Shown: positions 4,633 to 61,337 of the stretch, piece after piece
Numbering within the stretch: position 1 is the stretch's first letter
Layout of the letters: each line of letters opens with the position of its first letter
Assembly (NCBI GenBank): GCA_951406725.2
Contig: OX597832.1
Location: 11,780,001 to 11,844,000, forward strand
Source of the DNA: Octopus vulgaris
Taxonomy: Eukaryota
Reading direction: 5' to 3'
DNA length: 64,000 nucleotides
Program-made: the position numbers and the translations under genes
Notes under the pieces: model-generated
Databases searched by the model: none
Told to the model about the DNA's origin: nothing
The model's input: the letters and a program-made list of their open reading frames with translations, nothing else

Positions 4633-5080
4633 TAAGGTGAGCTGACAGAATGGTTACCAGGCTAGATGAAATGCGTAGCGGTAATTCACCTGTCGAGCTG
4701 ACAGAAACATTAGCACGCCGGGCGAAATGCTTAGCGATATTTCGTCTGCGTTACCTTGTGAGTTGAAATTCCGCCGAGGTCGACTTTGCCTTTCATCCTT
4801 TCGGGGTCGATAAATTAAGTACCAGTTACGCACTGGGGTCGATGTAATCGACTTAATACCTATGTCTGTCCTTGTTTGTCCCCTCTGTGTTTAGCCCCTT
4901 GTGGGTAATAAAGAAATAGGTAATTCACCTGTCTTTACATTCTTAGCGCAAATTATGCCGAGGTCGACTTTATCTTTTATTCTTTCGGGGTCAGTGAAGT
5001 AGGCTCACGTTGATCACTGGAACCAATCTAATCGACTTACCCCACCTAAGAAATTGCTGGACATTTTCCCAAATTGGAAT
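4633..5080 (+). mobile_element. Old SINE of lineage C (C'), split by a younger family C copy
   Basis: The head GGTGAGCTGACAGAATGGTTA...GCGGTAATTCACCTGTC resumes at 4919 with GGTAATTCACCTGTCTTTACATTC...GCCGAGGTCGACTTT...TTTCGGGGTC. Confidence 0.85.
4695..4918 (+). mobile_element. Young SINE, family C (copy 1)
   Basis: tRNA-like head, conserved GAGGTCGACTTTGCCTTTCATCCTTTCGGGGTCGATAAATTAAGTACCAG block, and tail ...GTGGGTAATAAAGAAATA. A perfect 15-bp TSD, GGTAATTCACCTGTC, lies at 4680-4694 and 4919-4933. Confidence 0.95.
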
Positions 5081-5089
5081 TCAAATCAA

Positions 5090-5200
5090 TCACATGGTTC
5101 CGTGTACTGTCCCATTGAGTGGTACCTTCGGCAAGTGTCTTCTACGGTAGGCTCGGATAGACAAAAGCCTTCTGAGTAGATTTCGCAGACGGAAACTGGG
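5090..5200 (+). mobile_element. Family D SINE head/core fragment
   Basis: CACATGGTTCCG..GTCCCA..GTGGTACCTTCGGCAAGTGTCTTCTAC..AAAGCCTT..AGACGGAAACTG matches 20596-20702, then diverges. Confidence 0.7.
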
Positions 5201-5502
5201 TCGCATGTGTTAGCATTACCTGTATATTGCTGATTATACCTGTATATATGCCATTATTCACTTTTATTTCAAGATTTCATGCCAAAAGGGAAAGAACCTG
5301 TTTCTAACCTAGATCCAAGGCTTATTCATTGGAATTTCAGCATCAACAATAGGGTGTATTTTCACGTAGTACGTATGTATGTATGCATGTATGTATAGTG
5401 TAGATTTGTATGATTTGTTATATGTATGTATTCCCATGCATATACTTGCATATCTAAATATGCTCATGTATGTATGCACTTAAGTATATATATATATATA
5501 TA

Positions 5503-5730
5503 TGTAAAATAATATGTGACAATTATTCAATAGCCAAGATAAAACTCTGAGTTTCTGATGCCGAGGTGGAAATCCACAACACCATCTCTTCGGTTATCTG
5601 ACCACCTGAAAAACGCTATTATCTTGGCTTTTGAATAATTGTCATATATTATTTTACAGATAAATTTCCTCTATTTACGTAATATTGAGGTCTCTTTCTT
5701 TCTTTTGTTATCTTACCGTTTTTACCAATA
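5503..5730. mobile_element. Penelope-like inverted pLTR structure in (TA)n with a hammerhead motif on the minus strand
   Basis: A 40-bp inverted repeat (5503-5542 / 5619-5658, 2 mismatches) brackets a minus-strand HHR fold at 5538-5598. (TA)n flanks both sides. Confidence 0.7.
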
Positions 5731-7789
5731 TATATATATATATATATATATATATGCACGTGTCAGTGTTTGTATGAGTGTTCCTGTGTATGTTTGTAGG
5801 TTGTGCGTCGTGTTTACCTGTATATCTACTCTTAATCTTAATTAGTTAGGGTGTCAGGTCAAATTTAATGTGTATTTGTTTTTATAGAAAATACAAGTAT
5901 ATTTTTGCATAGCTTCTTTAGGCTTATTATTTCTCTAAGAACGAAGTTAACGATGGGTGTGGATGAAACGTAATGTAATGACGTGTGAAGGATCTCTTAA
6001 CCTGTTTCATCTAGTACTTCACTGACAAACAAAACTACCCACACATTCGAATATTTAATAGTGCGAGAGAGCAAACAAAATATAATAAGGCGATATAAAG
6101 AGTATTTTCAAGAGATGAGAGGAAAATGAAGTAAACGTGAGAGGGTGGGAGACAGTGAGAGTGGCGGTAAATATACGTAAGAGTGAAGGAGTAGGAAGAG
6201 GAGAGGAAATGACACAAACAGAGAATTTAATATTCTAATAATGGAATCCTTACACAAACACACACACAGAAACTCGTACATAAATCCGCACACACATACA
6301 AACACACACATACCATCAAAGCTGTGAACATATATACATACACGACAAGTATACGCATGCAGACGTACAAATTTCTTTACACACATGGATATTCATACAC
6401 ATATATACAAAGACACCCACGCACACATTCATGGATTTATATGCATATATATTCAAATTTGCTAATGTGCATACACATATATGCATATTATATATGCGTG
6501 TGCATATAGATACCCCTTTCTCTCTACTGCTCTCACTCTCTCCTGCATTCTCTCATCTTCACTCTGTACATGTGTTTGGGTGTGTCTCTGTGTATATATA
6601 TACACACGCATATGCCTGCGAGTGCGTGTACGAGCTTGTGCTTATGTATGTATATCTACGTAGTTGTTTAACGTGGAAAACTATACCGTGCAATATAGCA
6701 GGATATTATAATGAAGAAGGCTGATAACACATTATTTCAGATTATCTAAACATGTACGATTGCTACGCACACATTGTACACATTATATGCTTCCTTTAAT
6801 TGACTCAATATGTTTTCATATAGGAGGTGTTTGAAATTTAGATAAGTACCACGGTATGTCTTCACATATGTTAGTCTTATAACTATAACAATGTCTTTAT
6901 ATTATATATATTTATAAGTAAAAGAATATATATTCAGATGCCACATTATATTTCAGAAATGTTATAATTATCATATGGCTTTACACAACCACACACACAC
7001 ACACATACATACAAACACACACATACACATATTTCTTTGTAACTTTGTAACAATAACATTAATTCTCTTAGAATATGTTATAACATACCTGTTTCAGGTA
7101 TAACAATGTAATTACTTAATATTTATAATAGAGTAATACCTATGATAGCATGTGTTTATATATTGCTATATCATATTTTATATTATGCAGTTCTAATATG
7201 AGTTCCTTATCTAAGATACACTTATAACTGTAAGAATCTCTCTCTTCTCTCTCTCTTCTCTCACTCTTCTCTCTCTCTGTCTCTCTATCTCTCTCTCTCT
7301 CTTTCTCTCTCTCTCTCTCTCTCTATATATATATATATATATATAACATATATAAACATATCATATATAGAATGTTTATAGCAATATACTTGCATAGATA
7401 ATAGGTGGAAGACCTAATTACATCTACATGATATATTTATAGTAGTATGTCTTCATATATGAAATATGCATACCTATAAAGATATATCTATATAAATGAG
7501 ATGGTATAATCTATGAAATGTTAGTCAGTAAATCAGAACCATCTCCGTTTGATGCAATTGGATAAATCGTTTCCTCAAATGTGACTATGAGGTATTTGAC
7601 CTGAGCACGTAAAGAGATCTAAGCGCGTGATATCATTGAATATCATGTCATATTCAAATGCGGGTTTTTGATATATTCCAGTCCGTTAATTCCAGTAATT
7701 TCTAACCTTGTCTGCAATAAAATTTACTGTTACATATGTGATTGATAACACCTAGAAGATACGTATTTTCCGTTCACCTTACTTAATGT

Positions 7790-59818: not shown

Positions 59819-60240
59819 CGCAAGGATAGCTGTGTGGTTAGGAAGTTTGGTCCTCAAGCCTGTGAGTTTGGGTTCAGTCCCACAGTGTGTGTGGTACCTA
59901 GGCTTAGTGTCATTTAATATAGTACACCGCCAGCTTAAATCATATGAACGGATTTCTTGAACGGAAACTAAAAGTAGCTCATCGTTTATGTGTGTTTCCA
60001 TCTGTGGTAGTGTGTGTGTGTGTGTGTTTTTCAGTGATATTTGTCCTTCACCGCTACCTGACTATCGGAATTGTTTTACGTTTCGGTAACATAGTGGTTC
60101 AATAAAAGGGACCTATAGAATTAGTACTAAGCTTTAAAAATAAGTACTGGCATCGAAATTGTTTGACTAAAATCTCTTGAAGCCGCTGTCCCAGCATGGC
60201 TGTCATCCAATGACTGCAACAAGTAAACGGTAAATGATAG
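59819..60240 (+). mobile_element. Old full-length SINE D
   Basis: GCTGTGTGGTTAGGAAGTTTG..GGGTTCAGTCCCAC..ACGGAAACT..(TG)n..AATAAGTACTGG..CCAGCATGGC..AATGACTGCAACAAGTAAA. Confidence 0.85.
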
Positions 60241-60899
60241 AACATACATAATAAGTGTACAAGCACGTATGAATATCTAAATATTTATTTCTATGCCTAT
60301 GTACCATGTAGCTCGAAGTTAGGTGAATAAAAAGCAAGTAAGTATCAAGGATGTCCAGGTATCAGTGCATTACGGCCGTTTCAAACGGCTCCATTTAATC
60401 GATCAATGAAAAAGTTACGCCAATTTGAAATACACCTCTCTCCTCGGAGCAGATGAACATATAGTTTTCCAACATATAGGATTCACCATTATATTTCTTT
60501 AGCAAACTTTGCATCAGTACTACAGACAAAAATAATTACATTGCTTCTCTTTGCAATTTTTGTGGCTGAATGAATTCAGGGAAAATAATACTTAAATCCT
60601 GCTATAATTTAGAGTGACACAAGAAAGTAATGGGGGTCAATAAGTGTGTATCCGTATATCTGTGTATGGGTTGTTTGTGTTAGACAAAATAACACTTCTC
60701 GTTTTGGTTACAAAGCCTGATGTGTTGTGGTGTGTCGGTAGGGGGAGCTAGCCCATTAGATCTCACCCAATATTTAACAGTTGCTTATTTTATAGACACC
60801 GAAAAGAGGAGGGGACAACGTCTACTTTGCCAAAATTTGAACTTAGAATGTAAAGCCAGAAGAAATGTGGCTAAGCATTTTGGCCTCTGCGCTAACGAT

Positions 60900-61083
60900 T
60901 ATTTCTTTATTGCCCACAAGGGGCTTCACACAGAGGTGAGAAACAAGGTTAGACAAAGGGATGAAGTCAATTACATCGACCCCAGTGCGTAACTGGTACT
61001 TAATTTATCGACCCCGAAATGATGAAAGGCAAAGTCGACCTCGGCAGAATTTGAACTCAGAACGTAACGGCAGACGAAATACC
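60900..61083 (-). mobile_element. Young SINE, family C (copy 5)
   Basis: Runs from the tail TATTTCTTTATTGCCCACAAGGGGC to GGCAGACGAAATACC, where copy 6 begins. Confidence 0.92.
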
Positions 61084-61310
61084 TATTTCTTTACTACCAA
61101 CAAGGGGCTAAACATAGAGGGGACAAAGAAGGACAGACAAACGGGTTAAGTCGATTATATCGACCCCAGTGCGTAACTGGTACTCATCTAATCGACCCCG
61201 AAAGGAAGAAAGACTAAGTCGACCTCGGCGGAATTTGAATTTAGAATGTAACGGCAGACGAAATACCGCTAAGCAGTTCGCCCGGCGTGCTAACGTATCT
61301 GCCAGCTCAC
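61084..61310 (-). mobile_element. Young SINE, family C (copy 6)
   Basis: Runs from the tail TATTTCTTTACTACCAACAAGGGGC to the head GCCAGCTCAC. Confidence 0.92.
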
Positions 61311-61337
61311 CGCTAACGATTCTGACGCCTTGTGCAA

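Follow-up and report, generated by a model that had tools for sequence, protein, structure and literature searches.

The question raised by this locus is whether a SINE can use the head of its own family as a landing site. In the 64-kb stretch of Octopus vulgaris DNA that was analysed (the window), six young copies of one SINE share the 3' terminus AATA(A/G)AGAAATA and are followed by sequences that resemble the element's head. This targeting of the SINE's own family is real and, as a form, apparently undescribed; SINEs preferring another repeat are already known. With moderate confidence we presume that the element inserts in sense at head positions 15 and 48 of its relatives, both old and young, and elsewhere at sites resembling these, because they are nicked by the sequence-preferring endonucleases of one or two partner LINEs (probably Tx1 clade).

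The majority sequence of the six copies is 231 nt long. The family (about 230 bp) is a short, interspersed, non-coding repeat of many copies: nhmmer gives 19 matches in the window at E up to 1, 18 of them below 1e-4, and the contigs of four public runs contain 196,000-356,000 pieces per run. Against the usual box patterns, the element has an A-box-like motif at positions 11-21 (0 mismatches) and a B-box-like motif at 75-83 (1 mismatch); with these internal A and B boxes of Pol III type goes the absence of an internal terminator, as TTTT does not occur inside the element. Behind the six copies, TTTT is absent within 56-412 nt, depending on the copy. As regards a tRNA-derived head of SINE2 type, the fold is no better than that of shuffled sequences (z -0.71), copy 3 matches nothing in Rfam at E up to 10, ARAGORN finds no tRNA gene in the window, and the Rfam matches on the window (the best 150 of 308) are microsatellite-type noise below gathering scores. 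For membership in a named octopus SINE family (OK, OR1, OR2) or in the CORE/Meta/Ceph superfamily, short motifs were compared and not consensuses; the motifs are absent from the published supplements searched. The element pattern has 0 matches in viral contigs (two scans) and 0 in prokaryote genomes; six metagenome loci carrying it were set aside, as all of them amount to hardly more than chance hits.

Table 1. Young SINE copies, their hosts and their TSDs in the window.
Feature	Position	Strand	Remark
Copy 1, young SINE, near full length	4694..4918	+	Inserted into an older relative, at its head position 48
5' TSD of copy 1, 15 bp, 0 mismatches	4680..4694	+	Partner 4919-4933; last base may be the element's
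Older host of copy 1, 5' part	4636..4679	+	77% identity
Older host of copy 1, 3' part, resumes at element position 48	4919..5043	+	74% identity
Copy 2, full length	16665..16895	-	5' end fused to the host head or in its place; separate 5' TSD absent
Older host of copy 2, resumes at element position 15	16494..16664	-	78% identity
Copy 3, full length, in non-SINE DNA	23220..23449	-	Empty site inferred in run X16
5' TSD of copy 3, 13 bp, 0 mismatches, begins GGTATT	23450..23462	-	Partner 23207-23219
Copy 4, full length, in non-SINE DNA	50629..50859	+	
5' TSD of copy 4, 15 bp, 2 mismatches	50612..50626	+	Partner 50860-50874, beginning AGAAACGT
Dimer, left monomer: head + copy 6 body + tail, then GGTATT	61084..61313	-	
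Dimer, right monomer = copy 5, element position 48 to tail	60900..61083	-	
5' TSD round the whole dimer, 10 bp, 0 mismatches	61311..61320	-	Partner 60890-60899; about 3 nt past position 15 of older host
Older host of dimer, 3' part	60748..60899	-	74% identity
Tail-only fragment, same terminus, 81% identical	45834..45875	-	Then TATCTT, neither motif; may be another tail-sharing element

The junctions behind the six tails read exactly as the preliminary description gave them. Its count of six out of six is exact for five copies, in which the tail is followed by position 15 (AGAAAC) or position 48 (GGTATT); the sixth lies 3 nt off position 15, and a seventh, tail-only fragment carries neither motif. 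That four insertions lie inside related SINEs at these positions is confirmed: copies 1, 2 and 5 have as their hosts older relatives (74-78% identity to the six-copy majority sequence) that resume at element positions 48, 15 and about 18-20, respectively, and copy 5 in turn is the host of copy 6, again at position 48. The head-like TSD starts reported for the two copies in non-SINE DNA hold, with the caveat that the 5' TSD of copy 4 has G at a position where the SINE head has C. The objection foreseen there, that the motif might be missing from the 5' TSD or from empty sites, did not materialise, the motif being present in the 5' TSDs of copies 1, 3 and 4 and an empty orthologous site of copy 3 apparently existing in run X16.

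The fixed 3' end and the TSDs, called by script on the six copies, are the signature of retroposition. A true TSD is found in four of the six only, because in copies 2 and 6 the supposed 5' TSD falls inside element sequence (offsets +14 and +46). The four true TSDs begin with G, G, A and A; judged on the TSD start alone, the RTE-type Tn-T signature, in which the TSD begins with T some 10 nt behind a T stretch, is absent, as none starts with T. Local tandem duplication was rejected as the source of the dimer of copies 5 and 6, whose halves are 85% identical.

The nesting is far beyond what the composition of the window would give. Family copies cover 2.7% of the pre-insertion window, and the probability that at least four of six insertions are nested in sense is 5e-7 (1e-6 with microsatellites excluded). 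Outside the family, 81 of 122,260 positions start with either head 6-mer; that both non-nested copies should lie at one has a probability of 4e-7, or 2e-4 if one mismatch is allowed and 2.5e-3 if any element 6-mer is accepted. The share of copies flanked by one target type (4/6, counted in the window only) exceeds the 20% used by Kojima as a criterion. Both head sites have YRGWAWY in common, a motif derived post hoc, which has no other sense match in the element. A single short endonuclease motif was nevertheless rejected as a sufficient cause: with 6-9 bp it predicts 3-7% of sites in family copies against the 4/6 observed (P 2e-5 to 3e-4), and because of this underprediction either a longer recognition or help from the RNA must be assumed. 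The target of copy 4 matches the SINE head at 10 of 15 downstream positions and 0 of 10 upstream ones; such a one-sided match is odd for an endonuclease binding both sides and speaks against the partner-endonuclease reading.

The contigs of the four public runs (X3/X6/X8/X16) were examined for tail-to-head joints. Joints at exactly positions 15 and 48 are among the best 15 of 858 joint rows, and the three tail-to-internal joints among these 15 are all at position 15 or 48. The tail is joined to position 15 in 9/11/9/11 contigs (X3/X6/X8/X16), a tail 6 nt shorter is joined to it in a further 5/6/4/6, and the tail with GGTATT is joined to the body in 13/9/8/0. In a second junction table, six of the 12 rows listed involve the tail, four of them being position 15 and two carrying GGTATT. 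As an internal control, in seven listed rows other break points join nothing but the head start, and in none do they join position 15. No loose ends at the tail are found among the best 24 of 1,600 loose-end rows; as a weak control, 5' truncations are also not seen to concentrate at positions 15 or 48 in the loose-end rows listed. Because the contigs of the four public runs, taken together, show the same two joints, the hotspots are no peculiarity of the window, and the preference for two head positions proposed in the preliminary description is supported by both sources. Two details go against the partner-endonuclease reading: the 3-nt offset of copy 5, and the empty position-48 row of run X16 (0 contigs).

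We presume that insertion would proceed as follows. Pol III would transcribe the element from its A/B-box-like head, past the tail and into the copy's own TSD, which would equal the target sequence in nested and non-nested sources alike. A partner protein would recognise more than 6-7 bp of the head and nick the bottom strand; the read-through extension may then pair with the primer strand and fix the start of reverse transcription. Such pairing would favour sites of longer homology, i.e., other family copies. In a family host the cDNA end may pair with the host head, leaving a seamless head and no visible 5' TSD, as in copies 2 and 6. L1/Tx1-type machinery fits both the TSD length of 10-15 bp and the A-rich end containing AATAAA.

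Recently active L1-Tx1 families have been reported for Octopus vulgaris (PMC13282606). The suggestion of a sequence-specific partner of Tx1 type made in the preliminary description has gained a close published precedent, SINEU/Tx1-Mar (PMC4494074), although the partner itself was not found: no LINE sharing the SINE tail was recognised within the 64-kb window. A LINE remnant at about 7850-8800 was rejected for this role, as it has no tail in common with the SINE. According to PMC4494074, SINEU-1/2/3 of crocodilians likewise have a strong preference for another repeat with two hotspots in the host, a TSD of about 16 bp, and tandem copies sandwiching a TSD; 313 of 347 SINEU-3 copies adjoin Mariner-N4, whose two dissimilar hotspots are served by different Tx1-Mar families. 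There the SINEU host is a Mariner DNA transposon, the head is snRNA-derived and the partner LINEs are known, whereas the octopus SINE has the head of its own family as host, both sites in sense, and off-target sites that mimic the head. The Alu hotspot at position 133 is also a fixed position, used in sense, within the element's own family; according to PMC2836564, it is explained by suboptimal L1 endonuclease sites around the A-rich linker, which pairs with the poly(A) tail, and the TSD is very short or none, in contrast to the mixed-sequence head sites, 10-15 bp TSDs and lack of a poly(A) run in octopus. No published description of the targeting by this SINE family was found in the literature searched, in which subscription papers and Repbase Reports are thinly covered.

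It is possible, though not probable, that the endonuclease is only loosely specific and that the 3' read-through extension picks the nicks to be used, so that source copies hand on their own target and form two heritable lineages. Stated in full, i.e., that RNA sets the insertion site, the read-through TSD being a heritable guide and the two self-perpetuating lineages homing to the family promoter region and regenerating working heads, the proposal appears unlikely to us. It would account for the nesting that a short motif does not explain, for the position of the copy 4 match, wholly on the primer side, and for the non-nested targets being pure head 6-mers and not mixed (pure forms make up 15% of RGWAWY sites, and the probability that both targets are pure is about 0.02). 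No terminator occurs within 56 nt of any 3' end, and the closest pair, copies 1 and 3 (96%, support 96/93), have the same target class. A tail base (T/C, alignment column 255) tracks the target class in 6/6 copies; however, it is one of three columns splitting 3:3 (P 0.27), of which the other two disagree with it. On the tree, target class takes 2 changes, where shuffling gives a mean of 2.3 and a value as low in 288 of 500 shuffles, and subfamily does not significantly track target class in the six copies. The same pattern would arise from two partner LINEs that differ in their tails, and pairing over long homology should permit many head positions rather than two.

A read-through guide was already proposed in the preliminary description. 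The nested source copies assumed there are not needed, because any copy with a TSD has the target sequence directly behind its tail; the gain from annealing is known for R2Ol, in which annealing of read-through target sequence improves integration (PMC6795142). According to PMC6795142 and PMC6007223, target sequence at the RNA 3' end of R2Ol and R1Bm pairs with the nicked DNA and raises accuracy and efficiency, as the proposed helper step would. Both elements are autonomous LINEs specific for rDNA, with a site fixed by their endonuclease, whereas the octopus read-through RNA is only proposed; in the published cases compared (PMC6795142, PMC4494074, PMC6007223) the endonuclease sets the site and annealing tunes the accuracy. 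Kojima raises co-transcription with the target for SINEU, as strengthening specificity (PMC4494074). For RTE-mobilised SINEs the 3' microsatellite correlates with the TSD start, and the RNA 3' end is proposed to influence the cleavage site used, but the effect described is of 1-2 nt with an upstream T-stretch signature (PMC6007223; PMC13295347), compared with 6-8 nt in octopus, where the sites are two separate ones and none of the TSDs begins with T.

Tethering to the Pol III promoter, in which TFIIIC/TFIIIB on SINE heads would recruit the partner and the latter would cut the best weak motif nearby, seems improbable to us. Recruitment linked to Pol III has precedents in Ty3 and the Dictyostelium TRE elements. 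Position 15 lies inside the A-box-like motif and position 48 between the boxes, and nesting far above the motif frequency would be accounted for; yet copies 3 and 4 lie in DNA without a family match and still at exact head 6-8-mers, and the other SINE family of the window (1,362 bp) hosts none of the six insertions.

We are more doubtful still of composite subfamilies or template jumps, by which a few ancient tail-head junctions would have been amplified as dimers and the hotspots would be inherited junctions. Dimeric and tandem SINEs are already known (PMC10702118), the dimer of copies 5 and 6 has a single outer TSD, and divergence is no lower in its left half, supposedly the younger, than in the right one (17 vs 11 of 183). 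A separate 5' TSD is missing from copies 2 and 6, the first 14 nt of copy 2 are young-like at 14/14 (P 0.03 if host-derived), and some listed junctions in the public contigs are at 3-10 times single-copy depth. However, the joint rows are on average at about single-copy depth per contig, clean TSDs mark the points where copies 1 and 5 split older hosts, copies 3 and 4 stand as TSD-flanked monomers in unique DNA, the three older hosts diverged separately, and dimers mobilised as a whole would in turn be evidence of read-through.

Tail microhomology or small-sample chance, the AGAAA of the tail pairing with AGAAA targets and the rest being coincidence, is highly improbable and largely refuted by the contig joints and the window statistics: the tail end does match RGWAWY (element position 225), contigs contain joints of position 15 with a shorter tail, and a link between the 3' repeat and the TSD start is published for RTE elements (PMC6007223), but this cannot yield GGTATT (3/6 copies; 13/9/8/0 contigs) or the nesting excess, and full-tail junctions retain both AGAAA units.

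Read conservatively, a very abundant SINE has a safe place to land in the head of its own family, which would limit damage to the host and may provide truncated copies with a promoter. The partner-endonuclease reading points to an undescribed sequence-preferring LINE endonuclease. The natural set of insertions is very large, and the shares of the RNA 3' end and of the protein in choosing the site of target-primed reverse transcription become measurable in it; if RNA sets the site, the element would amount to a non-LTR system that is programmable by nature, and gene insertion tools could draw on it. In the octopus lineage, repeat libraries and the dating of nested insertions will also be distorted by nesting at fixed positions.

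The young SINE, an element of ~230 bp, targets its own head, and this is reproduced outside the window. Two head sites are concerned, element position 15 (AGAAAC) and position 48 (GGTATT). Motif search and BLAST confirmed, behind all six young copies, the 3'-following sequences quoted in the preliminary description. Copy 1 interrupts an older relative at position 48 (TSD of 15 bp, no mismatches), and the dimer of copies 6 and 5 interrupts another about 3 nt beyond position 15 (for copy 5, a TSD of 10 bp, no mismatches). Host sequence resumes directly behind copy 2 at position 15 and directly behind copy 6 at position 48; no TSD is demonstrable for these two copies, because the 5' side is a single seamless head. 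Copies 3 and 4 are located in non-family DNA. Their TSDs (13 bp, no mismatches; 15 bp, two mismatches, the 5' TSD copy of copy 4 having G in place of C) start with the head motifs GGTATT and AGAAACGT, respectively, as had been stated. The claimed count of six in six is to be read as five exact cases and one offset; a related seventh, tail-only fragment (45834-45875) carries neither head motif.

Features of the window (positions within the window)
Feature	Position	Strand	Basis or remark
Copy 1, young SINE	4694-4918	+	motif search, BLAST
Copy 2, young SINE	16665-16895	-	motif search, BLAST
Copy 3, young SINE	23220-23449	-	motif search, BLAST
Copy 4, young SINE	50629-50859	+	motif search, BLAST
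Copy 6, left monomer of dimer	61084-61313	-	motif search, BLAST
Copy 5, right monomer of dimer	60900-61083	-	motif search, BLAST
Decayed 3' part of non-LTR retrotransposon	7850-8800	-	weak Pfam zf-RVT match, E 0.003, below cut-off
Second SINE-like family, microsatellite-interrupted copies	10276-10652, 17539-17901, 20564-20966, 5088-5198		
Two-copy repeat, unclassified	12797-13298 and 38118-38620		pairs 80-93% identical
Two-copy repeat, unclassified	1356-1689 and 46727-47056		pairs 80-93% identical
Two-copy repeat, unclassified	19527-19677 and 54526-54676		pairs 80-93% identical

Sense nesting of at least four of six copies has P ~1e-6, and a head 6-mer at the start of both non-nested targets P 4e-7 (2.5e-3 under the most lenient look-elsewhere). 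None of the six insertions lies in the second SINE family, which occupies 1,362 bp of the window. Both sites have YRGWAWY in common, and its sense matches in the element are these two only, the motif having been derived from them. Family copies hold just 3-7% of the window's short-motif sites of this kind but 4/6 insertions (P 2e-5 to 3e-4); either a longer sequence is recognised or pairing assists.

Contigs of four public runs (of 24; X3, X6, X8 and X16, with four different organism codes) were aligned on copy 3 and its flanks, and the joint coordinates were converted to element positions. The preference for the two head positions recurs there. The counts below, in that order of runs, are absolute lower bounds without a denominator; the letters between joined parts are not given, and, with three runs lying close to the organism of the window, a locus may be counted in more than one of them. 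Tail loose ends fall outside the rows listed. The young tail occurs in 4 of the best 15 of 858 joint rows: to a head start (at least 19/17/12/12 contigs), to position 15 (at least 9/11/9/11), from a tail shorter by 6 nt to position 15 (at least 5/6/4/6), and with GGTATT to the body, i.e., position 48 (at least 13/9/8/0). In these 15 rows the tail joins no other internal position and is never joined in antisense. Seven of them connect other break points with the head start and none with position 15, which is thus no generic edge of the alignments. In a second joint table the tail appears in 6 of the 12 rows listed (800 in all); position 15 accounts for four of these, GGTATT for the other two.

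The most frequent tail joint among the rows listed, 23449 to 23220, leads to another head's start; it may reflect a third site or, as in SINEU-3, a TSD enclosed between tandem copies. In X3, the second table also joins tail plus GGTATT to later body positions (23375 to 23214, 23328 to 23214) at 4-5 times single-copy depth; these may be dimers with a common deletion, moved as a unit. The last 7 nt of the tail (element 225-231, e.g., 23220-23226) themselves match the target motif, and contig tails at position-15 junctions can end 6 nt earlier; the outermost bases may derive from captured target sequence. In X16, a 3,314-nt record (depth 57.6) matches one copy-3 flank to 23223 and continues for 1,857 letters, and the same depth recurs in the opposite flank; we therefore infer that the orthologous site is empty, with the joint bridging it outside the rows listed. 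Scans of viral contigs, prokaryote genomes and metagenomes for the SINE gave nothing usable.

We presume, at roughly even chances, that one or more sequence-preferring partner endonucleases, probably of the Tx1 clade, act here, with read-through pairing assisting them and homology joining the 5' ends. The nearest TTTT lies 56-412 nt downstream of the six tails, so Pol III transcripts should include each copy's TSD and beyond; the extension would pair at the target and aid priming. The loop proposed earlier, in which nested sources read through into head sequence, thus becomes simpler: TSD carry-over should apply to non-nested sources too. No partner LINE was found, so membership of the Tx1-mobilised class is unproven.

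That the RNA itself specifies the target is an unlikely alternative. Each off-target site has an exact form of the head (P ~0.02 for both), and the copy 4 target matches the head at 10/15 positions downstream and 0/10 upstream; however, that of copy 3 also matches upstream (5/10). Copies 1 and 3 group as sisters and have the same target class, but target classes do not cluster on the tree (288/500 shuffles as low). A single tail base follows target class in 6/6 copies, although it is one of three columns split 3:3 (P 0.27). Moreover, the insertions are dominated by just two head positions, and the same pattern would result from two partner LINEs. Tethering to the promoter is improbable, composite units slightly more so, and tail microhomology or chance very improbable.

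In Kojima 2015 (PMC4494074), Mariner-N4 has two dissimilar hotspots in which SINEU is nested, with Tx1-Mar families as its partners, tandem copies around a TSD are reported, and co-transcription with the target is discussed. The young SINE works alike, but a partner LINE is identified only for SINEU. Available sections of other papers describe a sense hotspot at a single position for Alu in Alu (Levy 2010, PMC2836564), RNA-target pairing at priming (PMC6795142; PMC6007223), tandem and dimeric SINEs (PMC10702118), and 13 L1-Tx1 families listed as recently active in O. vulgaris (PMC13282606; the words "nested" and "target" are absent from the available part of its supplement). The accessible parts of PMC5786205, PMC4758252, PMC4824008 and PMC8967140 yielded no name for the family. 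Self-head targeting appears to be undescribed for it: in the literature searched, which excludes Repbase Reports and most subscription papers, no SINE is described as choosing fixed, mixed-sequence sites within its own head.

By its anatomy the repeat is a SINE, its tRNA origin being unproven: no tRNA model matched the young element, TTTT is absent within it, and it carries an A-box-like (11-21) and a B-box-like (75-83) motif. A profile search gave 19 family matches in the window (18 with E < 1e-4), the non-young ones being mostly older relatives with another tail and, where preserved, terminal ATT repeats. Such ends are seen at 12660-12760, 13620-13720, 46320-46420 and 62610-62720. The two families have head and body in common, and the different tails suggest that their partner LINEs were probably different. 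Two older ends carry AGAAA-C/G-G directly before the ATT run, resembling the position-15 site, and may thus constitute another, third target.

The window is 33% GC with many microsatellites. The non-LTR remnant has presumably a zinc-knuckle and restriction-like endonuclease layout, HERO/NeSL-like, and shares no tail with the young SINE. A frame at 15889-16371 (+), without a Pfam match, resembles a Tc1/mariner transposase C-terminus. One piece of the second SINE-like family begins ~45 bp beyond the host of copy 1.
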